40,954 nucleotides of DNA from Rhodothermales bacterium (GTDB taxonomy: Bacteria; Bacteroidota; Rhodothermia; Rhodothermales; VXPQ01), in contig JBBDTI010000035.1 of the NCBI GenBank assembly GCA_040904565.1, positions 1 through 40,954 of the forward strand, in the 5' to 3' direction. Below are positions 31,334-40,954 of the stretch, piece by piece. A model generated the notes under the pieces. The model saw nothing but the letters and a program-made list of their open reading frames with translations. It had not been told where the DNA came from and made no database searches. The position numbers and the translations under genes are program-made. Numbering within the stretch: position 1 is the first letter of the stretch; each line of letters opens with the position of its first letter.

Positions 31334-31406
31334 GCCAACGTAGCTCAGCTGGTAGAGCAGCTCACTCGTAATGAGCAGGTCACCGGTTCAAGTCCGGTCG
31401 TTGGCT
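31334..31406 (+). tRNA. tRNA-Thr(CGT)
   Basis: Acceptor GCCAACG/CGTTGGC, D-arm GCTC-AGCTGGTA-GAGC, anticodon stem GCTCA/TGAGC with loop CT-CGT-AA, T-arm ACCGG-TTCAAGT-CCGGT; CCA not encoded. Confidence 0.97.
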
Positions 31407-31412
31407 CACTAG

Positions 31413-31458: not shown

Positions 31459-31686
31459 GTTTGTGGCGGATTTGCTCAAAACGAGCCGTGCAAGATATAT
31501 GCAAGATGCGAGCGGGGAGTTTGTGGAAAAGTCGACGCTCTCGCAACGGAGCAACGGGCCGGGCATAGGCATTCATACAGTGCATGGACGGGTATACACG
31601 CGCAACAAGATGCTCAATTACGAATCATGGACGGAAGCATACGATCGGAAGGATTTGCTATACTGGCATCCCGAATCTCGAAGGCC

Positions 31687-32307
31687 ATGAAGCCGATCTC
31701 GGGACTCGTTCCTAGTACATCAATTGCGTATCACCTCGGACAGTGGCGTGACGTGCCATCGGATGTGTGGGAGGACTCCCCTTCTTACGCAAAGCGAGTT
31801 TTGAGGGAGTGCGATGCGGAGACCAAAATCAACGGTCGAATCGTGGGGTTGCGCAATCTATCGAATGAAGCGAGACGAATTGAAGGGTTGGCAGTAGAGG
31901 CACGTCGCGATTGGAAGAATAGTGCCTCCGAAGATGTGAGGCGCATCGCACATAAGAACGCAATTGTTCTGGAGGCACGAGCGCGGATTATCCGTCGATT
32001 TGTCGCGCGTCGCTCGCTAGGCGATCACTCATTGAATGTCAACGAAGATGCCATAGCGGGCGCCAGCGAACCAAGCTATTCCGATCTCTTCGACAAATCT
32101 CGGACGGAGCTCGAGGAAGTATGGTCTGATCGGCATGCAAGACCGAGGCTTATATACGAGATGCGGTTCAGCTTCGGGACAGAATGGCGCGAGCAATTCG
32201 ATGCGATCGTTGAAGAGGCGAAGAGGTTCGGGCTAGAGAAGCCGTACAAGAATCACAAATCCATGAAGTCGGCGATGCATCGTTTTGCTGAACGCAATGA
32301 CGTATGA
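31687..32307 (+). CDS. Hypothetical protein (first island ORF; alternative start 31627)
   Basis: ORF of about 206 aa filling the space between the att region and xis; no recognisable motif. Confidence 0.6.
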   Translation: MKPISGLVPSTSIAYHLGQWRDVPSDVWEDSPSYAKRVLRECDAETKINGRIVGLRNLSNEARRIEGLAVEARRDWKNSASEDVRRIAHKNAIVLEARARIIRRFVARRSLGDHSLNVNEDAIAGASEPSYSDLFDKSRTELEEVWSDRHARPRLIYEMRFSFGTEWREQFDAIVEEAKRFGLEKPYKNHKSMKSAMHRFAERNDV

Positions 32308-32435
32308 CGTAATTCCGTAAACGAACTCGTCAACGTTACCTCTAGAGGTTACGCCCCGACGTGCACGAAAATGGGTTCAGGCGCAGGACAAAGCGCTTGG
32401 ACCCATTTTTTTGTTGCACTCAATTCAGGCACGTG

Positions 32436-32636
32436 ATGGAAGCGACCGAGCGAATCGAACCTCGCGCACTGGACGCGAAGCAGGCGGCATGCTACGTCAA
32501 CATCTCTCTCCGAAAGCTTGACGAGCTCCAGGCAGCGGGCGAGCTCAGGCCCATCCGTATCGGGCGCAAGCGGCTTTTCCTCCGCGAGCAGCTTGATGCG
32601 CTTCTCAAGCGCGCGGCAACTCAGCAAGTTGGATAG
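32436..32636 (+). CDS. Excisionase-family helix-turn-helix protein (HTH_17)
   Basis: ALDAKQAACYVNISLRKLDELQAAGELRPIRIGRKRLFLREQLDALL fits the Xis pattern. Confidence 0.85.
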   Translation: MEATERIEPRALDAKQAACYVNISLRKLDELQAAGELRPIRIGRKRLFLREQLDALLKRAATQQVG

Positions 32637-32697: not shown

Positions 32698-32919
32698 ATG
32701 AGAAATCTACAGACGAAATCCGAAGGTAGCAAGCTGACCGCAGGCGACCACTCGGCCGCGCTTTACGGCGGCATTGCGCTTCACGGAGAGATTCCGCCCG
32801 CGATCGACAAAACAGCCGTTCTTGCAGATTGGCGACGTATCTGGCGCTCCGTGCTGTCGCAGCTGACGCCGATCCAGCTCGAGGCATTGCGCAACGAGCT
32901 CGCGGAGGTGGATCAATGA
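32698..32919 (+). CDS. Small hypothetical protein
   Basis: 73-aa ORF whose TGA overlaps the helicase ATG (ATGA), with GGAGG upstream of that ATG. Confidence 0.6.
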   Translation: MRNLQTKSEGSKLTAGDHSAALYGGIALHGEIPPAIDKTAVLADWRRIWRSVLSQLTPIQLEALRNELAEVDQ

Positions 32920-34337
32920 GACCGGATTCACTCAAGCTGATAGACCGTGAGATCGAAGAATATGCCAGTAACGGCAGGCTCAACGGGCACAACTACGTGG
33001 ACGACCGCCCGAATTTCGAGCATACCGACCTGGGCAATGCTGAGCGCTTCGTCCATCGGTTCGGTCACAATCTCATGTTCTGCAAGCCGTGGAGCTCATG
33101 GCTTGCTTTCAACGAGATTCGGTGGAAGGTTGACGACACTGGCGGTGAAAACCGCTATGCATACGAGCTCGTCCGCCAGATGCAGCGGGAGGCCGTCGAA
33201 ATCAAGGACAGTGATGCCCGTGATTCGGCGATGAAATGGGCGAGGCGCAGCCAGAGTGCATCCAAGCTCCGCGCGATGGTGAATCTGGCTGAAAGCATGG
33301 TGCCGGTCCTACCGGAAGCCCTCGACGCGGATAACTATCTCCTAAACGTTAAGAACGGAACCGTAGACCTCACGACTGGACGACTCCGGCCGCACCGGCA
33401 GAATGACCTTATCACAAAGCTCGCGCCCGTGACGTTCCGGCGTGACGCGACCTGTCCGCGATGGGAACGGCATCTGCTGGAAGTGTTCGATGGGGATGCT
33501 GAGTTGGCCCGCTATCTAAAGCGAAACGTCGGCTATGCGATGACGGGGGATGTCTCGGAGCAGATCATTACGATCCTCTATGGTTCAGGGGCCAACGGCA
33601 AAGGAGTGACGACTAATACGATCATGCACGTCTTGGGCGACTACGCCCAGTCGACGCGGCCGGATCTTCTGCTGTCCAGACGAGCTGGTAACGGCCCGAC
33701 GCCGGGCGAAGCTGCATTGAAAGGTGCGCGGTTTGTCTCCACGAGCGAGACAGGAAGCGGGCAGAAGTTCGATGAGGCGACGGTGAAGCGGTTGACAGGA
33801 GGGGACCGCATTCGCGCCCGGTTCAATCGACAAGATGAGTTCGAGTTCGATCCGACTCACAAGCTGTGGCTGGCGACGAACCACAAGCCGAGAATAGAGG
33901 GCACCGATTTTGCCATATGGCGCCGGATTCATCTCGTCCCCTTTACGGTCACGTTCACCGAGGAAAAACGCGACCGTGACCTCGAGGACACCCTCAAGGA
34001 CGAAGCATCGGGCATCCTGAACTGGATGATTGAGGGATGTCTGATGTGGCAGCAGGAGGGACTGAAGCCGCCACAGGCCGTGCAGAAAGCAACGAGCGAA
34101 TACAAATCCGAGATGGACGTACTGGCAGGCTTCCTAGAGGATTGTTGTGAGACGGGGATCGACGAGATGGAGGTGAAGGCTAGCCGTCTTTATGCGGAAT
34201 ACAAACAGTGGTGTGACCGCACTGGAGAACACGCTGAAACGCAGACTGGATTCGGTACACGACTATCAGAACGAGGCTTCGACAAGAAGCGGAAAAATGA
34301 CGGGAATTGGTACGTGGGCATCGGAATCAAGCAATGA
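32916..34337 (+). CDS. Phage/plasmid P4-family D5-like SF3 helicase (primase C-terminal type)
   Basis: HTDLGNAERF (D5_N), LLNVKNGTVDL, Walker A GSGANGKG, VKRLTGGDRIRARF, LATNHKP, AIWRRIHLVPF, C-terminal winged helix. Confidence 0.92.
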   Translation: MRPDSLKLIDREIEEYASNGRLNGHNYVDDRPNFEHTDLGNAERFVHRFGHNLMFCKPWSSWLAFNEIRWKVDDTGGENRYAYELVRQMQREAVEIKDSDARDSAMKWARRSQSASKLRAMVNLAESMVPVLPEALDADNYLLNVKNGTVDLTTGRLRPHRQNDLITKLAPVTFRRDATCPRWERHLLEVFDGDAELARYLKRNVGYAMTGDVSEQIITILYGSGANGKGVTTNTIMHVLGDYAQSTRPDLLLSRRAGNGPTPGEAALKGARFVSTSETGSGQKFDEATVKRLTGGDRIRARFNRQDEFEFDPTHKLWLATNHKPRIEGTDFAIWRRIHLVPFTVTFTEEKRDRDLEDTLKDEASGILNWMIEGCLMWQQEGLKPPQAVQKATSEYKSEMDVLAGFLEDCCETGIDEMEVKASRLYAEYKQWCDRTGEHAETQTGFGTRLSERGFDKKRKNDGNWYVGIGIKQ

Positions 34338-34350
34338 TCGGCCGAAAGCA

Positions 34351-34476
34351 TACACGATTCGTGTACGGTTTTCTCTCTGGTAGTGTATACCGTGTACCCG
34401 TTTTCGCATTGACCGCTAAGAAAAAAAGACATGTGGGTTTAAATGAAAAGGGGTTCACACCCTACACACCCTACAC
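34351..34476. other. Putative replication origin: inverted pentamer iterons flanking an AT-rich core
   Basis: GTGTA at 34361, 34383, 34392; TTCAC/TACAC at 34454, 34463, 34472 (9-bp period); A/T-rich spacer between them; directly downstream of the helicase. Confidence 0.7.
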
Positions 34477-34482
34477 GTGATA

Positions 34483-34848
34483 ATGCACCCCTCGAAACGA
34501 AAAGGCAATGACTTCGAGCGCGAGTTGCGCGATGCCTTCCACGAGGCCGGGCTGCGGTGCGTCCGTGCGTGGGGATCGAACGGCAAGACGCTCCGCACCG
34601 ACGACGGGCGCCCTTGCACGTCGGATGTGGACCTACTGGTAGAGGGCCGATTGAAGATCCAGGCAAAGCGGCGGAAGACAATAGCGCAGTACCTCAAGCC
34701 GCCGGAAGGGGCGCACGTGGCGATCGTGAGGGAGGACCGAGGGGAATCGGTGGTGACGATCCCGCTTGAGCTCTTCACATCGCTGGTTCGAAAAGTGTAC
34801 AGACCCGCGAATGCGGGATATCATCAACCAGACAACACAAACCAATGA
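34483..34848 (+). CDS. Hjc-like PD-(D/E)XK Holliday-junction resolvase
   Basis: SKRKGNDFERELRD...RAWGS...DVDLLV...IQAKR matches the archaeal/phage Hjc-type pattern. Confidence 0.75.
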   Translation: MHPSKRKGNDFERELRDAFHEAGLRCVRAWGSNGKTLRTDDGRPCTSDVDLLVEGRLKIQAKRRKTIAQYLKPPEGAHVAIVREDRGESVVTIPLELFTSLVRKVYRPANAGYHQPDNTNQ

Positions 34849-35465
34849 CGAAAGAGATCAACTTAGAAGTACGCGAGCACGAAGCCTTCAAGGCGATCGG
34901 AGAGAAGCGGCGCCGGGCGAAAAAGGACATCGCTCGACTGAATGAGATCGCAGCCGAAGCGGACCGCGAAGCCGAAGAAATGCGCAGCGCGCTCGGCCGG
35001 ATTGAGCTCGCCAAAGAGATGGGCCAAGAGGCGGACGAGGCCGAGGACGTCAGCGGTCGGCTCCAGCGCGCCGAAGTCAAGGCCAGTGAGGCCCGCGCGG
35101 AGGCGAAGAGGCGACAGGCGGTGATCGACGATCTTCAAGACGAACTGGTCGCCGTGATCCGTACGGTCTCCGACGAGATCAATGAGGTGGCTCACGAGCA
35201 GATCCGGACGCTCTCGCAGCGAGCCGTCGAATTGCAGCGACAGCTCCACGAGGTGCAGGAAGAGGTGAGCGGGGTCGAGGATTCCATCCAGCAGAGCGCG
35301 CGGAGGATCTACAACCGCTACCAAACGCATTCGGTCCGGCTTCCGCATGACAGCGTCGTGCTGGAGTTCAAGACGAACCCCATGCACAATGGATACACGA
35401 ACGGAATGCGCAAGCACTTCGAGCGCGTGCGCGCCTTGGGCTACGAAACCGAGAGGATAAAATGA
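34845..35465 (+). CDS. Coiled-coil hypothetical protein
   Basis: Long A/E/R/Q-rich heptad helices; ATGA-coupled on both sides. Confidence 0.75.
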   Translation: MTKEINLEVREHEAFKAIGEKRRRAKKDIARLNEIAAEADREAEEMRSALGRIELAKEMGQEADEAEDVSGRLQRAEVKASEARAEAKRRQAVIDDLQDELVAVIRTVSDEINEVAHEQIRTLSQRAVELQRQLHEVQEEVSGVEDSIQQSARRIYNRYQTHSVRLPHDSVVLEFKTNPMHNGYTNGMRKHFERVRALGYETERIK

Positions 35466-36112
35466 AACACGAGATTGAGATTCGAAGCTATTCGGCCAAG
35501 TTCACGGCAGGGGCGCGCAACCTCCACATCTTCACGCCGCTATACAACGAGCGGTCGGGAGACCTGGGGGGCTTTCACGAAGTGGTTAGACCAGGCGCCT
35601 TCACGGCATCTATTCGGCGCGGAGATGCATCCGTATTTGGACGGACCGACAGCACCGTACTCGCATCCGCCCGGCGAAACACGCTCAGCGTCACGGACGG
35701 CGACCGGGGGCTCACGTTTACGTTCAAGCGGTCCGGGAAGAGTGAACACATCGAAGGCATTGCCGATAGCGTGACACTCGACATGGTCGTTCTACGGGAC
35801 GCCTGGAGCGAATTGCGCGGCGTCAAGCTCCGCGAGCTTCTGGATGTAAGCATAGTGAATGTGAGGCCCGGTTTCGCTGACGACGTGTTGGTCGGTGAAC
35901 GGGCACAAAAGCGAGTGCGCGACTGGACTTCGGAGCGAGAGATAGCGCGCCGTCATCTGGACGCCTTGGCCGCACAGGAGCACCGGGCAGCACGCCTCGC
36001 CTCATGGCCGGAGAGGTTGTCCGTTGATGAGAAACGCAGGCTCGGTATTGCGCTCACGAAGGAAGATCGGGACCGCATTCTCTGGGACGCCTTCGACCGC
36101 CACTACGGATGA
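35462..36112 (+). CDS. HK97-type prohead protease (S78) homologue, apparently non-catalytic
   Basis: YNERSGDLGGFHEVVRPGAF and VLA...TLSVTDGDRGLTF match the family; the NHD and MSFGF catalytic motifs are not found. Confidence 0.7.
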   Translation: MKHEIEIRSYSAKFTAGARNLHIFTPLYNERSGDLGGFHEVVRPGAFTASIRRGDASVFGRTDSTVLASARRNTLSVTDGDRGLTFTFKRSGKSEHIEGIADSVTLDMVVLRDAWSELRGVKLRELLDVSIVNVRPGFADDVLVGERAQKRVRDWTSEREIARRHLDALAAQEHRAARLASWPERLSVDEKRRLGIALTKEDRDRILWDAFDRHYG

Positions 36113-36612
36113 TCCGGCGCACCTACACGAACCCGTACGTTGCCCTTGCGGCCGAAGATATGGCGTGGTGGGTATCGCTCGATTTGGGATTGCGAGATCC
36201 CGGCGAGCCTATCTGGATTACCATCGACTTCGTGGAAACGCTGGAGGCCAGGACCTACGGCTACTACTGGCCCCGAACGATCCATGTCGAGCTCCGCCGG
36301 GAGATGGATGAATACGAAGCGGCCGCGACGGCAGCGCACGAACTGCGTCACTGTTGGCAGTATCGGCACTGGTCGGAGGAAGAGCTTGCGTCTCACGAGA
36401 GAAAGGAAGCCGACTGCCGCGAATACGAGGAAGAGGCCATGCGGAGGTTCTGGAGCCCGTACAGGCACAACGGGTCTGACCTGCTCGGAGCCGTCGGACG
36501 CAGGAAGAGAGAGGCGACGTCAACGACAACCGGGGCGGGGTCAAAGAGCTACGCCGTGGAGCCAAATGACCGTCGGGGCAGCAGGAATTTTAATTGCGGT
36601 ACAGAAAACTGA
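36109..36612 (+). CDS. HExxH zinc metallopeptidase-like protein
   Basis: TYGYY...TIHV...TAAHELRHCWQY...KEADCREYE (HExxH plus a downstream Glu). Confidence 0.7.
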   Translation: MIRRTYTNPYVALAAEDMAWWVSLDLGLRDPGEPIWITIDFVETLEARTYGYYWPRTIHVELRREMDEYEAAATAAHELRHCWQYRHWSEEELASHERKEADCREYEEEAMRRFWSPYRHNGSDLLGAVGRRKREATSTTTGAGSKSYAVEPNDRRGSRNFNCGTEN

Positions 36613-36625
36613 ATAAAAAACCGGC

Positions 36626-36931
36626 ATGAGCGACGCACGTTTGACAGCGCAGATCGAGCACTTGCAGGACCATACGCAGCAGTGGGTTCGTGACCTGGTT
36701 CGCAGCTACACGTTCGAGCCGGTCCAGCTGAAACTGCTCATACTGGCTGCGGAGGCGCACGAGCGGTGCTCGGAGGCGCGTGAGCAGCTGAAACGGGACG
36801 GGATCACGATCAAGGATCGGTTCGACCAGATCAAGCGGCACCCCGCTGTTCAGATCGAGCGTGATTCGAGGCTTTCGTTTTCGAAGCTCATGCGGCAACT
36901 GAAACTAGACCTCGACCCACCGGAGATGTAG
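36626..36931 (+). CDS. P27-family (HK97-like) phage terminase small subunit
   Basis: LLILAAEAHERCSEAREQLKRDGITIKDRFDQIKRHPAVQIERDSRLSFSKLMRQLKLD. Confidence 0.82.
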   Translation: MSDARLTAQIEHLQDHTQQWVRDLVRSYTFEPVQLKLLILAAEAHERCSEAREQLKRDGITIKDRFDQIKRHPAVQIERDSRLSFSKLMRQLKLDLDPPEM

Positions 36932-36933
36932 AG

Positions 36934-37392
36934 ATGCCACGACCGAAGAGAACAGGGCGATCAAGGGAATACGATCCGACGCCGACTGAGCAATGGTGGC
37001 TGGTAGGTAAGCCGTTTCCCCCGATGGTACCGGGATGCATCAAGGCTGAGCTCGGCGGGCCATCCCGAGATGACGAAATTAAGCGGCAAGGGCTGAGCCC
37101 CTTCGAGGTGCTGAGCCTGAATAGTCTCGAGTCCCTCGAGCGGCTGCGCAAGCTCTACGAAGCGGCTCCGCAGTCTATTCGTAACCGCGTGCCGGAGGTT
37201 CGGCGGAAGATCCTCGAGGACGGCCCGACGGCGGATCTCTTGAAAGAGGACGAGGCGCGGACGGAGCGACTTCAACGCGCGTTCACCTGGGAGAACGAGT
37301 GGCTGAACCGGTGGCTGGCGTTGTCCGGTGACGAACAAGACGAGATTACGAGAATGGCGGCCACGAGACAGCCGGAGCCGCTCGCGGAATGA
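36934..37392 (+). CDS. Hypothetical protein
   Basis: 152-aa ORF starting 2 nt after terS and ATGA-coupled to the next gene. Confidence 0.7.
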   Translation: MPRPKRTGRSREYDPTPTEQWWLVGKPFPPMVPGCIKAELGGPSRDDEIKRQGLSPFEVLSLNSLESLERLRKLYEAAPQSIRNRVPEVRRKILEDGPTADLLKEDEARTERLQRAFTWENEWLNRWLALSGDEQDEITRMAATRQPEPLAE

Positions 37393-37742
37393 TACCAGGA
37401 AGTGACCTACCGCCCGAAGACTACGAGTTCTTGACCGAGTCTGGCCGAAAGGAGTGGAACCGCATCGTCGACGTGCTCGGGCACCATGTCTTAGGCCGGG
37501 ACCCGGCCTTGATCGCGGACTATGCCGATGCCTTGTCCTGCCTGCTCCAGATCGCGGACCTGCTGCGGCTTCGAGGCGCGGTCCAGATCAACAATGGCGA
37601 GCCGGTCGAGGGCAGCGAAGTGCAGATGTTAGCGGACGCCATGCAGGATCTTCGGAGGAGCATTGCTCGGCTCGGCATTAAGCAGCCGTTACCGGAGCGA
37701 ATAAGTGTTCACAGACTCACACAACGAATTTCGAGGAACTGA
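37389..37742 (+). CDS. Second, divergent P27-family terminase small subunit-like protein
   Basis: PP...FLTESGRKEWNRIVDVL...DPALIADYADA...LRLRGAV...LADAMQDLRRSIARLGI follows the P27 TerS pattern but lacks the (H/N)P motif. Confidence 0.6.
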   Translation: MIPGSDLPPEDYEFLTESGRKEWNRIVDVLGHHVLGRDPALIADYADALSCLLQIADLLRLRGAVQINNGEPVEGSEVQMLADAMQDLRRSIARLGIKQPLPERISVHRLTQRISRN

Positions 37743-37800
37743 CATGAGCTCCGGAACGCTAACATGACTGGCAGACTGCCCGTCCATATCTTAGGCCACG

Positions 37801-38427
37801 ATGAAGTCATTCAATGCCATATTGGACGAACTTGCCCGTGAGGGTATTGCTGCTGATCCCCAGAGCCTAACGGACGCACGCATATTAGAAGCGTTAAGCA
37901 ATTTCGAGGTATTCTGGGCCGCCGATTACGACAGTCACAAGATAAGAGAAGGTGTCCTTAAAGCACTGGCCGAAATTCAGATTACGTCTGCTCGACACCA
38001 CGAGTGGAGTGGCATAATGCAGAGGCGGCTCGGGCCGTTGATTGATTACCAAGACGCCAAGTTCTTCTATAATCTTGCATCGGACAGTTTGTCAAGGGCC
38101 AAAGCCCTTTCTAGCCTGAAGGCGTTCGAGCGGATGCGGACAGCTCAGTATCAGATTGTGGCAGCGTTGGACAAGCACACGACTGATATATGTAGGTGTC
38201 TGGACTTGATGTACTTGAGCGTCGACGATGCAGTCACGTGGCGTAACCAGTTCATGGGAATCGCTCGTTCTGACCAGTCGTGGCGACAGATAGCAGAGAG
38301 GTTCTGGGTTACCCTCACGCCTGAAGACGTTGCGCGGATCGACGACCCTAGCGATGTCGCTAGTCAGGGCGTCTTCTTGCCGCCTTTCCACGACGGATGT
38401 AGGTCTATCATCGAACCCGTACTATAA
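37801..38427 (+). CDS. MuF / SPP1 gp7-family minor head protein (short form)
   Basis: YQIVAALDKHTTDICRCLD ... PPFHDGCRSIIEP matches MuF D-x-R-T-x-x-x-C ... PPxHxxCR. Confidence 0.8.
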   Translation: MKSFNAILDELAREGIAADPQSLTDARILEALSNFEVFWAADYDSHKIREGVLKALAEIQITSARHHEWSGIMQRRLGPLIDYQDAKFFYNLASDSLSRAKALSSLKAFERMRTAQYQIVAALDKHTTDICRCLDLMYLSVDDAVTWRNQFMGIARSDQSWRQIAERFWVTLTPEDVARIDDPSDVASQGVFLPPFHDGCRSIIEPVL

Positions 38428-38512
38428 CCTATTACCGATCTTAATCGGTGTCTGACCGCCATACGGAAACATCAGGGCCCACGAACTCCACGAGGCCCTC
38501 TTCGCCCTGGAC

Positions 38513-38743
38513 GTGCCTGTAGGCGTGGCGCTGCGCGACCCGGTCCGCGCTATGCGCTTCACCGCAACGTGCTCTAAGCAGGCGATACGGGCGGCTCTAC
38601 GGGCCGTGTGCGTCGATCCACCGTCTTTGACGGACGACGAGCTGCGCCTCTTCGCGTGCGCCGTCATGAGCCGGGTACTGGTCCATGCACGGAATAACGT
38701 CACGAGGGAGCGGAGTGTTGTACGGGAGGCGCCGAAGGCGTAG
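38513..38743 (+). CDS. Small hypothetical protein (possibly truncated)
   Basis: GC-rich coding-like ORF; the frame is open back to a TGA at 38453 with no ATG before the GTG. Confidence 0.35.
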   Translation: MPVGVALRDPVRAMRFTATCSKQAIRAALRAVCVDPPSLTDDELRLFACAVMSRVLVHARNNVTRERSVVREAPKA

Positions 38744-38909
38744 GCGCGAATTGCTTGTGCTAAATGTAAATAATCGAATTTCCTATCATTAGAGTTAGAT
38801 AGGTGCATATGAATCACGCATCTCAGAGAACGATGGACGTCGCTCCCGAATTAGGACAGCGCGTATACACCTATGGCGACGCTGAAAAAATCTTACGCCT
38901 TCCGCACGG

Positions 38910-39518
38910 CTAGAACAACTCCAGCTGCGACCGCGAATACCAGCCCGCACGCGCGATTGCTGACGATAGGTCAGCGAACTCCTTTTCGTAAGTGCACCAT
39001 CGGGGGGCAACTTCATACTTTCGATCGTATAGAAGTATTTCGATGCTCGATCGAGAGCTCACAGCCGAGTTTGGTATAACATAAAATGAAAGCCTTTCGC
39101 CATCTACTCCGACGAGGACATAGACGTCAACGTCTTTTCCTGCACGCGTTACCCCTTGCAAGCTGCTGAATACGAATCTCCGCACCTTTCTCCCGTCGCT
39201 TACCCTCGTGCCGAGCGCTGCAGATTTGATCTCGATCTTATAGCCTTCCGGATGGACGGCATCGTGGCGCGAATGATGACCAGTAGGCTTCATCCCACAC
39301 GCCCAACATACCACGTGTTCGATGAAGCGCGGGGAGGTGAAAAGATCGAAGTTCACTTCCTCCAATACGCGTCGTCGTAGCGCGATCAAGCATTTGTCCA
39401 CGGTCTCTAACGTCGATCCAAGGGAGGGGGCTATCGAGACGTATAATATAGAAAAAGGGGGTGCCATTTCTGACGCCCCTTGTGGTATAGCCAGGTGTGT
39501 CGGCACCGGTAACTCCAC
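38910..39518 (-). CDS. PD-(D/E)XK restriction-endonuclease-like protein (true start probably downstream, e.g. GTG 39401 or ATG 39467)
   Basis: IEHVV...RHDAVHPEGYKIEIKSA gives E...D...ExK; C-terminal DVYVLVGV...FYVIP is typical of this fold. Confidence 0.7.
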   Translation of the reverse strand: MELPVPTHLAIPQGASEMAPPFSILYVSIAPSLGSTLETVDKCLIALRRRVLEEVNFDLFTSPRFIEHVVCWACGMKPTGHHSRHDAVHPEGYKIEIKSAALGTRVSDGRKVRRFVFSSLQGVTRAGKDVDVYVLVGVDGERLSFYVIPNSAVSSRSSIEILLYDRKYEVAPRWCTYEKEFADLSSAIARAGWYSRSQLELF

Positions 39519-39583
39519 GGCGTGCGCGGATGCGACCGGGATAAATCGGCCTACTCGTATGCAATGCCCTCGTGATCGAACCC

Positions 39584-39658
39584 TTCGCCCGGTTCGATGG
39601 ACAACTCATCGACGCCGGCACGAATCCGATCAAGCACTACGCTAACCTGGCATCGTAA
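39584..39658 (+). pseudogene. 3' remnant of an HK97-family major capsid protein gene
   Basis: Manual translation FARFDGQLIDAGTNPIKHYANLAS* resembles the RxDGxLxDAGTxP(I/V)K capsid C-terminus; in-frame TAA at 39542 upstream. Confidence 0.65.
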
Positions 39659-39686
39659 GCCTCACGGCATCGTGAGGAAAGGCTGG

Positions 39687-39724
39687 AAAGGGGCGGCCCG
39701 GTTCATTCCGAGTCGCCCCTTTTC
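39687..39724 (+). terminator. Intrinsic terminator after the capsid remnant
   Basis: AAAGGGGCGGC-CCGG ... CCGA-GTCGCCCCTTTT. Confidence 0.7.
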
Positions 39725-39739
39725 TATGCCGTAGCTCCA

Positions 39740-39820
39740 CGCGAGGAGGATCCGCAAAAATGGACGCAGGAGGAGGTAGCGCGGACGCTGGGGGTTGACC
39801 GAACTACTGTCTCCAAGTTC
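39740..39820 (+). pseudogene. Helix-turn-helix gene fragment
   Basis: Manual translation REEDPQKWTQEEVARTLGVDRTTVSKF, with no nearby in-frame start. Confidence 0.5.
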
Positions 39821-39892
39821 TCAAAGTTTAGAGTCTCCGGCAAACCCGGGGCGGTTCACTTTCCGGCGAGCCCATCATGTCCAGTGTACGAT

Positions 39893-40156
39893 TCATCGTT
39901 GGACAGTTGTGTCATGCCCTGCTCGCGTGTTTTCTTCGATTGCAACGATGCATTGGTACAATTGTCCAACTCCCATCGTCGCAAGGCCAGCCACGACCCC
40001 AGTAAGAGCAACCACTGCGTCGAGCCAACTATTTGGCATTCCAATAAGACCGAACGCGAATGATGCAACGGCTATTACTATGCAGACGAATCCAAGATAA
40101 TACAGGCTGACACCGAGGCCATAGAGTACGTGGAAGCGACGGGCAGTAGTGCTCAT
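39893..40156 (-). CDS. Small two-TM membrane protein
   Basis: Two hydrophobic segments followed by GQLYQCIVAIEENTR. Confidence 0.65.
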   Translation of the reverse strand: MSTTARRFHVLYGLGVSLYYLGFVCIVIAVASFAFGLIGMPNSWLDAVVALTGVVAGLATMGVGQLYQCIVAIEENTRAGHDTTVQR

Positions 40157-40582
40157 GAATCAAGTGGTCTAAATATTACGAGTGGAGGGGTGCGCCGGCG
40201 CCTCAGACCCCTAGCATTGAGTCCATGAAGGGCGCCGCCATGATTGTGTAAAGTATGCCGATGCGTTTCCCGGCCTTGCCTTTCTTCACGGCGTTCACGT
40301 CTCCCAACAGGCGAGCATGGACCTAGCCCACAAACCTGGACGCCGGGAGCTAGCTGCTTGCAGACAAGGATTTCCCGATCACGAAGACGCCAAATGCTAT
40401 CGCGGTAAATAGCAGAACGTGATACCAGATTCACTGGAGCCCGGGATCAGAATATAAAGGCCTGTCGAAACGACGAATGCGAACAAACCTGCCATGAAGG
40501 CCGACCCACCAAGGGGCTCATCGGATGGGGTCGCATCTTCGGTCTGCTTGGTGGACGCTCTCGCCCCGGTTGTGGGATAACC

Positions 40583-40954
40583 TCATGTCACCGAGGTAGC
40601 TACACTTCTCACCGAATCCATTAAGAGCTCTCCCGCAATCTGCGCATCAAAATCCCGAGGCTCGCCAAGCGTTGAATACAGCATAAACGTACAACGAGCA
40701 AATAACTGCTCCATCAGTTCGGCGTTACCGTCTGGCAAGTCTTCTGACATGACTTCGAGATATTCCTGCCCTGCAACGGCCGAAATTATTCGTACGCGTT
40801 CGCGCCACTCGCCTGGGAGCGCTTGCCCGTTCAACATAATTCCGAGAAAGCCCAGGACGCTAGAGTAGATGATCTTGATCTGCTCTTTCGAGATATGGTC
40901 AGGAGGTACGGACGGAGCCAGATAGTTTTCTCCAGCATTGAAGAGGGAGAGGCA
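40583..40954 (-). CDS. Hypothetical protein (3' part; start beyond right edge)
   Basis: The frame of the 84-aa ORF stays open upstream of ATG 40837 to base 40954 (CLSLFNAGENYLAPSV...). Confidence 0.55.
   Translation of the reverse strand, partial: CLSLFNAGENYLAPSVPPDHISKEQIKIIYSSVLGFLGIMLNGQALPGEWRERVRIISAVAGQEYLEVMSEDLPDGNAELMEQLFARCTFMLYSTLGEPRDFDAQIAGELLMDSVRSVATSVT

Follow-up and report, generated by a model that had tools for sequence, protein, structure and literature searches.

The 40,954-nucleotide contig of a Rhodothermales bacterium analyzed here (the window, which is the whole of contig C35 in a 95-contig, 4.02-Mb genome estimated to be 94.9% complete) carries an open reading frame (ORF) that is a true homologue of the HK97-type prohead proteases of family S78 and in which the catalytic His and Ser positions of that family and a near-invariant acidic one are occupied by Arg, Thr and Asn. 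The fold is kept and the active site is erased, which is the pattern of a pseudoenzyme, and this S78 homologue is most likely a pseudo-protease. It is encoded in an operon with small-terminase homologues, within an island that appears satellite-like in its gene content. The reading that we tentatively prefer, in a finely poised judgment, is that of a catalytically inactive S78 descendant kept as a working gene in the morphogenesis and packaging operon of this island.

35462..36112, plus strand: S78 prohead-protease homologue, with the protease fold at residues 1-138 and a helical tail at residues 139-216

Descent and predicted fold of the S78 homologue

The ORF runs from ATG to TGA and encodes 216 amino acids (aa). 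The original prediction had likened it by eye to HK97/S78 proteases on the basis of DLGGFHEVVRPGAF (residues 34-47) and DGDRGL (residues 79-84), and this likeness is borne out by a Pfam match above threshold, by a profile match and by the fold. Peptidase_S78 (PF04586) is the sole Pfam family retrieved (E 1.4e-6, 29 bits, for a gathering score of 21), in a partial match that pairs residues 22-89 with profile positions 17-86 of 165. A profile constructed from 119 relatives, from which the query was excluded, aligned residues 1-158 with 85 bits (E 2.9e-28). A phmmer search of 1.84 billion representative proteins retrieved 476 proteins at E <= 1e-3, four at E <= 1e-10 and only the protein itself at E <= 1e-30. 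The closest other protein is 40% identical (E 1.2e-13), and many of the matches are aligned over residues 4-137, corresponding to the whole protease domain. Each of the 12 relatives scanned is an ordinary S78 protease, with a score of 85-182 bits for the Pfam model, and one of them is fused to a capsid domain.

Other searches returned fewer or weaker matches. Six records were found among known phages by tblastn, all with 27.6-38.4% identity, and a word-indexed search recovered four other proteins only (27-32% identity). In PHROGs, the only match was a weak one to phrog_2263 (protease-capsid fusion family, N-terminal part; E 0.0023). Solved structures gave no match at E <= 10 when searched with the sequence alone and, when searched with a profile, only a weak match to the protease-capsid fusion 9sz9 (E 0.073). 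The score against TIGR01543, the NCBIfam equivalog model of the HK97 proheadase, is 22.1 bits, well under its cut-off of 59.

The AlphaFold2 (AF2) model of the protein, built with an alignment of 120 sequences (A2), has a mean predicted local distance difference test score (pLDDT) of 85.8 and a predicted template modelling score (pTM) of 0.64. It displays a beta-rich domain (residues 1-138) followed by helices at residues 139-181, 188-194 and 200-215, in agreement with the helical C-terminal extension that had been proposed earlier for this protein. When the model was compared with 48,161 chains using VIA-align, the top match was T4 gp21 (5jbl_A; Z 8.9, root mean square deviation 3.4, 126 aligned residues, model residues 1-139) and the second was the protease of varicella-zoster virus, a herpesvirus (Z 5.1); the remaining rows are coiled-coil matches to the tail (Z <= 4.9). 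Foldseek returned no row at E <= 1e-3 from the PDB, where the top three rows are again T4 gp21 chains (E 6.5e-3 and above, probability 0.99), and 58 matches at E <= 1e-3 from BFVD (best E 4.1e-12), whose top rows, where named, are annotated as prohead proteases or as fusions of protease and capsid. The predicted fold is thus the assemblin/prohead-protease fold. Since the protein is placed there by both sequence and fold, it belongs to the S78 superfamily by descent.

The predicted helical tail spans 78 residues (139-216), exceeding that of most relatives by about 40. Six of its residues (L179, R185, L186, R193, L194 and L198) are the commonest residue at their positions in the basic, Leu/Arg-rich tail of the relatives, in a region where the alignment is weak.

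Catalytic positions and maintenance of the gene

HK97 gp4 is the type member of S78, with His65 and Ser114 as catalytic residues. More generally, phage prohead serine proteases are described as having three conserved catalytic residues, the third of which follows the Ser (PMC7411985). The codons that occupy these positions in the S78 homologue are the following.

35642..35644, plus strand: codon CGG, Arg61, in the catalytic His column
35774..35776, plus strand: codon ACA, Thr105, in the catalytic Ser column
35858..35860, plus strand: codon AAT, Asn133, in a near-invariant Asp/Glu column, probably that of the third catalytic residue

The columns were defined by aligning 153 other proteins with MAFFT L-INS-i. 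His is found in 151 of these 153 relatives at the position of Arg61, which lies within VFGRTD (residues 58-63); the exceptions are P0059, with a His one residue along, and P0042, a spurious match of 2159 aa that has no aligned stretch there. Likewise, Ser is found in 151/153 relatives at the position of Thr105, within DSVTLDM (residues 102-108), the exceptions being P0094, which has Cys, and the same spurious match. The His and Ser (or Cys) pair is present in all the true homologues among the 153 nearest matches. The column of Asn133, which from the alignment is probably that of the third catalytic residue of the family, is acidic in 117 of the 119 relatives of the profile (69 Asp and 48 Glu) and holds 91 Asp and 60 Glu among the 153. 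The profile alignment built without the query recovered the same pairing at all three positions. The replacements of the His and Ser motifs, both announced in the original prediction, are thus upheld by both alignments.

The surroundings of the catalytic positions have also been rewritten, with NHD becoming GRT and SFGF becoming TLDM, including the loss of the Gly. Elsewhere the family signature is largely kept: among the 25 columns in which A2 is fully or at least 90% conserved, 17 are retained (R8, S32, G36, G37, F38, E40, G45, A46, F47, T74, L75, G83, L84, W115, R124, P136 and R147), and four of the eight lost ones (H61, S105, F106 and F108) fall in the His and Ser motifs. A hidden frameshift masking the His motif was considered and ruled out, as no other reading frame over residues 55-66 restores the motif and the profile alignment is continuous. 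The S78 homologue thus lacks every attribute by which the enzyme family was assessed, namely the His, the Ser, the acidic residue, an equivalog-level score and the context of a head module, and it very probably has no activity of the Ser-His protease type.

An enzyme with a rearranged site, in which Thr105 or Ser103 would act as the nucleophile together with another base such as His96 or His39, is a very improbable alternative. Thr can serve as a nucleophile in some hydrolases, Ser103 lies only two residues before Thr105 on the same strand, both His residues are present in the protein, and pseudoenzymes may, according to one review, have "migrated" catalytic residues (PMC10211241). Nevertheless, such an enzyme would have to be reconciled with the change of all three conserved positions at once and with a nucleophile motif altered from SFGF to TLDM, Gly included. 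No true homologue among the 153 nearest matches does without the His, and no gene for a capsid substrate was found in the island or in the assembled genome with the one capsid model searched (PF05065).

Regarding the state of the gene, the original prediction had described a full-length ORF coupled on both sides, and this description is accurate: the 216-aa ORF overlaps each of its two neighbors by 4 nucleotides (nt) and has an N-terminus of the family type. Its start matches the family pattern M..EIE.R, in which E6 is shared by 99/119 relatives and R8 by 109/119, and the ATG is preceded by GAGAGG. The guanine-cytosine (GC) content at codon positions 1, 2 and 3 is 0.645, 0.475 and 0.696, similar to that of the neighboring genes. 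In a FastTree reconstruction of 153 domain sequences, the S78 homologue has the longest terminal branch, with 1.49 substitutions per site for a median of 0.53. Nonsense changes represent 3.9% of the possible non-synonymous single-base changes in this gene; if the excess branch were neutral, about 8 nonsense hits would be expected and the probability of encountering no stop would be about 2e-4, a rough estimate in which indels and errors in the tree are left out of account. The accumulation of this excess length without a stop, in an intact and overlapping gene, is an argument for selection having preserved the reading frame as the active site drifted. We consider it probable that the gene is maintained by selection.

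The same evidence bears on the possibility that the gene is a relic, that is, a useless and decaying remnant, in a degraded element, of a prophage head module that has not yet been hit by a stop or a frameshift, which we regard as unlikely. The loss of all three catalytic positions would be expected of such a remnant, as would a Pfam match restricted to the N-terminal half, the score of 22 bits for a cut-off of 59 against TIGR01543, the longest branch of the family tree and the status of a singleton with no relative closer than 40% identity. Moreover, the remaining head-related genes in the island likewise fall short of their equivalog cut-offs, and no resident helper was found in the assembled genome. 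In contrast, decay does not readily account for an ORF that is intact at full family length and conserves its N-terminal and fold residues, nor for the concentration of the losses in the catalytic motifs while 17/25 near-invariant columns are kept. The overlaps of 4 nt on both sides, an eight-gene operon in which no gene is broken, normal codon-position GC and the low, roughly estimated probability of a stop-free frame under neutrality also speak against it. Finally, the small-terminase homologues are duplicated, with no capsid, portal or large-terminase fragment between the genes, unlike what is left of a deleted head module.

The island and its operon

The satellite setting implied by the original prediction was recovered in the gene content of the island, which begins at a tRNA-Thr gene and comprises the following features in the window.

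31334..31407, plus strand: tRNA-Thr (CGT), integration target of the island (ARAGORN)
31364..31409, no strand: attL, a 46-bp direct repeat (exact repeat found by script)
31627-32307: ORF of unassigned function
32361..32636, plus strand: AlpA-type helix-turn-helix (HTH) regulator, excisionase-like (PF12728 HTH_17, E 2.5e-7; PHROG excisionase families)
32829..34337, plus strand: D5-type replicative helicase (D5_N, E 7.9e-34; DUF5906; Pox_D5)
34477..34848, plus strand: RusA-like/PDDEXK resolvase-like protein, first gene of the operon (phrog_244, E 7.8e-9; weak Hjc and PDDEXK_15 matches)
34845..35465, plus strand: coiled-coil protein of 206 aa, a helical hairpin with a small C-terminal domain, overlapping the S78 homologue by 4 nt
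36109..36612, plus strand: HExxH (HELRH) metallopeptidase-like protein of 167 aa (PF20573 DUF6782, E 9.5e-7, 28.7 bits for a cut-off of 27)
36626..36931, plus strand: small-terminase homologue 1, P27 family, divergent (PF05119, E 6.5e-9; TIGR01558, 27.9 bits for a cut-off of 45.6)
36934..37392, plus strand: ORF of 152 aa with no family match
37389..37742, plus strand: small-terminase homologue 2, P27 family, divergent (PF05119, E 1.1e-4; phrog_83, E 2.7e-7)
37801..38427, plus strand: MuF/SPP1 gp7-like minor head protein homologue, short and divergent, closing the operon (phrog_241, E 4.4e-8; TIGR01641, 28.5 bits for a cut-off of 39.65)

The attL repeat consists of the last 44 bases of the tRNA-Thr gene plus two more, and an exact copy is located on contig C20 (43610-43655), where it adjoins a tyrosine integrase gene (PF00589, E 9.7e-36) and an excisionase-like HTH_17 gene (E 2.6e-14). 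The GC content drops from approximately 0.62-0.66 in the flanks to 0.54-0.61 inside the island. Together, these elements delineate an island that is inserted at the tRNA-Thr gene and measures at least about 15 kb, with its middle part unassembled and a continuity across C35 and C20 that we infer. The probable far end of the island (C20, 43610-49191) comprises attR, an ORF of 205 aa of unassigned function, the tyrosine integrase, the HTH_17 gene and small ORFs that have no family matches apart from one weak match to DUF1499; its GC content is 0.535-0.575, compared with 0.63 in the chromosome beyond.

The island displays attributes of phage-inducible chromosomal islands (PICIs), combining an integrase and att repeats at the tRNA-Thr gene with an AlpA-type regulator and its own helicase. 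It also has a packaging component, in the form of two Terminase_4 homologues, and no capsid, tail or lysis genes in its assembled parts. Because of this combination of integrase, att repeats, AlpA, helicase and small terminases in the absence of assembled capsid, tail and lysis genes, the island seems to conform to a phage satellite of the PICI type and not to a prophage. In the assembled genome, the S78 homologue is the only S78 match and Terminase_4 is confined to the island; no match was obtained for the capsid (PF05065), portal (PF04860) or large-terminase (PF03354) families, searched with one Pfam model each. We detected no sign of excision or amplification of the island in these metagenome samples, its depth being equal to that of the flank (approximately 47-49 in run X1).

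The S78 homologue is the third gene of an eight-gene, same-strand operon (34477-38427) with intergenic gaps of -4 to +58 nt, and it does not lie beside a portal or capsid gene, its neighbors being the coiled-coil and HExxH proteins. The AF2 model of the coiled-coil protein (pLDDT 82.7) has helices at residues 8-58 and 66-158; its sequence has only weak matches to coiled-coil families and its model has no match in BFVD at E <= 1e-3. A scaffold function was considered for it and set aside as unsupported, the atlas lead to P4 Psu (0.90) being at chance level.

The gene downstream of the S78 homologue invites a different interpretation, in which the two would act as a unit. The dead fold might sense a phage head component and switch on the HExxH peptidase as an effector of the abortive-infection type, or carry it together with the MuF-like protein into capsids as cargo delivered with the satellite DNA, or serve as a decoy for a host immunity that senses prohead-protease activity. 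MuF and MPTase proteins are known as capsid cargo. In the island, the HELRH gene overlaps the S78 homologue by 4 nt, its product just exceeds the DUF6782 threshold of Pfam, and the operon ends with a MuF-like gene. Small HExxH proteins of viruses, among them ImmA/IrrE and MPTase-PolyVal types, are the atlas look-alikes of the HELRH protein, to be taken as leads only. Furthermore, one report describes the activation of CBASS (the cyclic oligonucleotide-based antiphage signaling system) by prohead-protease cleavage (PMC12991175). Nevertheless, we judge such a unit to be quite unlikely. The comparison of 13 island proteins with the PADLOC defense models gave no specific match; the matches at E <= 0.01 were only weak ones, to the coiled-coil and RusA-like proteins. 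A contact between the S78 homologue and the peptidase is purely putative. The position of the HELRH gene inside the packaging operon, rather than beside a repressor, is unusual.

Several other observations concern the remaining genes. No relative of the HExxH protein was found among genome contigs, nor of the MuF-like protein among viral contigs. The match of the D5-type helicase to phrog_1829 ("primase"; E 4.5e-136) covers profile positions 317-757 of 772, and the protein has no primase-polymerase N-terminal part. Both small-terminase homologues score below the NCBIfam equivalog cut-off, and the 152-aa ORF lies between them. The MuF-like protein (208 aa) matches the C-terminal MuF core only and is far shorter than the usual phage MuF. 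Beyond the operon, the minus-strand ORFs of 38422-40954 (131, 202, 87, 93 and at least 123 aa) have no Pfam match and a single weak holin-like match (E 0.033); these ORFs probably represent cargo of an accessory kind carried by the island, and the contig ends inside the last of them.

Some repeated or shared segments of the island are also of note. A perfect tandem repeat, CACACCCTA x2.3, occupies 34456-34476 in the 139-nt gap after the helicase gene and ends at the RusA-like gene's start codon. Possible functions are those of an iteron or origin, or of an operator of the late operon. Within the RusA-like gene (34615-34778), other metagenome contigs match only a piece of about 150 nt, with 8-18 differences, and some of these contigs jump to other positions of the island (joints 34775>38477, 34778>37406 and 34778>40276), which suggests that the same community contains mosaic relatives of this island. 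At 39672-39993, the summed contig depth reaches 161, versus approximately 46 in the flanks (run X1). Short contigs match only 39741-39859, with loose ends that start at 39811, beside a small tandem repeat (39810-39828), and a short sequence in this segment is common to other genomes or elements.

A possible role in helper assembly and comparison with known systems

Prohead proteases are co-assembled into proheads, and Duda et al. in 2013 reportedly concluded that the tail targets the HK97 protease there. The same idea has been advanced for the SPN3US protease, whose C-terminal propeptide is proposed to target the protease into the prohead (PMC7411985). The predicted fold and helical C-terminal tail are both kept in the S78 homologue, and in related proteases it is this tail that is presumed to bring the enzyme into the prohead. 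Because these two elements are kept, the S78 homologue might enter or bind the proheads of a helper phage during the late phase of the helper, either replacing the helper's protease or standing beside it. Two outcomes could then be envisaged. The maturation cleavage could be blocked, which would amount to interference with the helper, or the protein could, as an adaptor resembling a scaffold, bias assembly or load proteins of the satellite.

The original prediction had proposed a pseudo-protease acting on helper procapsids as a dominant-negative maturation inhibitor or a size-redirecting adaptor. The pseudo-protease part is well supported, with the fold kept and the His, Ser and acidic residues all replaced. 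The action on helper proheads did not attain the same standing; by analogy with the related proteases, it is plausible and, in our opinion, somewhat less likely than not. The fuller scenario is one in which the satellite would have turned its helper's protease into a non-cutting binder that enters proheads through its fold and tail and then blocks maturation, reshapes assembly or loads the HExxH peptidase and the MuF-like protein; we hold this to be somewhat unlikely.

Several observations weigh against the reading of a retained, inactive S78 descendant in a satellite, and the interpretation must therefore be cautious. For this host, neither a helper phage nor an HK97-type capsid is known, and prohead binding is purely conjectural. 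Four loci with a helicase 37-41% identical to that of the island carry neither an S78 gene nor any other gene of the module, meaning that no element family backs the reading. The S78 homologue has no match in any of 60 related genomes, and there are no variants within the gene in contigs from four runs of one study (a sediment metagenome, two of the runs being possibly the DNA's own source); no RNA run containing the stretch was listed. The closest relative is only 40% identical. The AF2 model relies on an alignment that consists of active relatives, and the presence of Thr105, Ser103, His39 and His96 leaves a small chance of a rearranged active site. Finally, the island is split over two contigs, and the unassembled gap between them could hold more genes.

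Satellites are known to hijack the capsids of their helpers through altered capsid proteins, scaffolds and terminase subunits. If a dead protease still enters proheads, maturation cleavage would be a new point of attack, and the protein would represent a naturally occurring case of a dominant-negative protein in viral assembly. Furthermore, with CBASS reported to sense prohead-protease activity (PMC12991175), a copy that does not cut would escape a sensor of this kind. In practice, the importance of this is limited by the nature of the host, an uncultured sediment bacterium with no known helper and no close relatives of the gene. In the literature searched, outside which most subscription journals lie, we found neither an inactive prohead protease reported from a satellite nor a description of a satellite using a maturation protease to hijack capsid assembly.

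Compared with the HK97-type S78 proteases, the S78 homologue is homologous over residues 1-158 and has the predicted fold of T4 gp21 and herpesvirus assemblin. It also keeps GGF.E..PGAF, TL, GL, W115 and R124, and its domain is followed by a helical C-terminal tail, as in those enzymes. It differs from them by the presence of Arg, Thr and Asn instead of His, Ser and the acidic residue, by a match to only half of the Pfam profile (29 versus 85-182 bits), by a score below the equivalog cut-off, by the absence of an adjoining portal or capsid gene and by a tail about 40 residues longer.

Among satellites, CpmB of the Staphylococcus aureus pathogenicity islands (SaPIs) and Sid of P4 are scaffolds that redirect helper assembly. 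Ccm of SaPIbov5 is a satellite-encoded capsid-protein homologue that redirects assembly (PMC8569155), and TcaP of the PLEs (elements that resemble phage-inducible chromosomal islands) is a satellite scaffold with the same effect (PMC10945586). The logic would be the same here, with a small, apparently capsid-less element that encodes an altered head-assembly protein or competitor beside small terminases. In contrast, those proteins are capsid or scaffold proteins with demonstrated effects, whereas the present one is a homologue of the maturation protease that is very probably inactive.

A parallel in gene content is given by elements that carry a head maturation protease gene, namely the capsid-forming PICIs (cf-PICIs) and TG93 of Vibrio, where this gene accompanies those of capsid protein E and a small terminase (PMC13230959). 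These elements also encode a capsid protein, and their protease is not reported there as inactive, whereas the island described here has no assembled capsid gene and its protease homologue has lost the catalytic residues. Nevertheless, they share with it the presence of a protease homologue, in a satellite or satellite-like element, adjoining the small-terminase genes.

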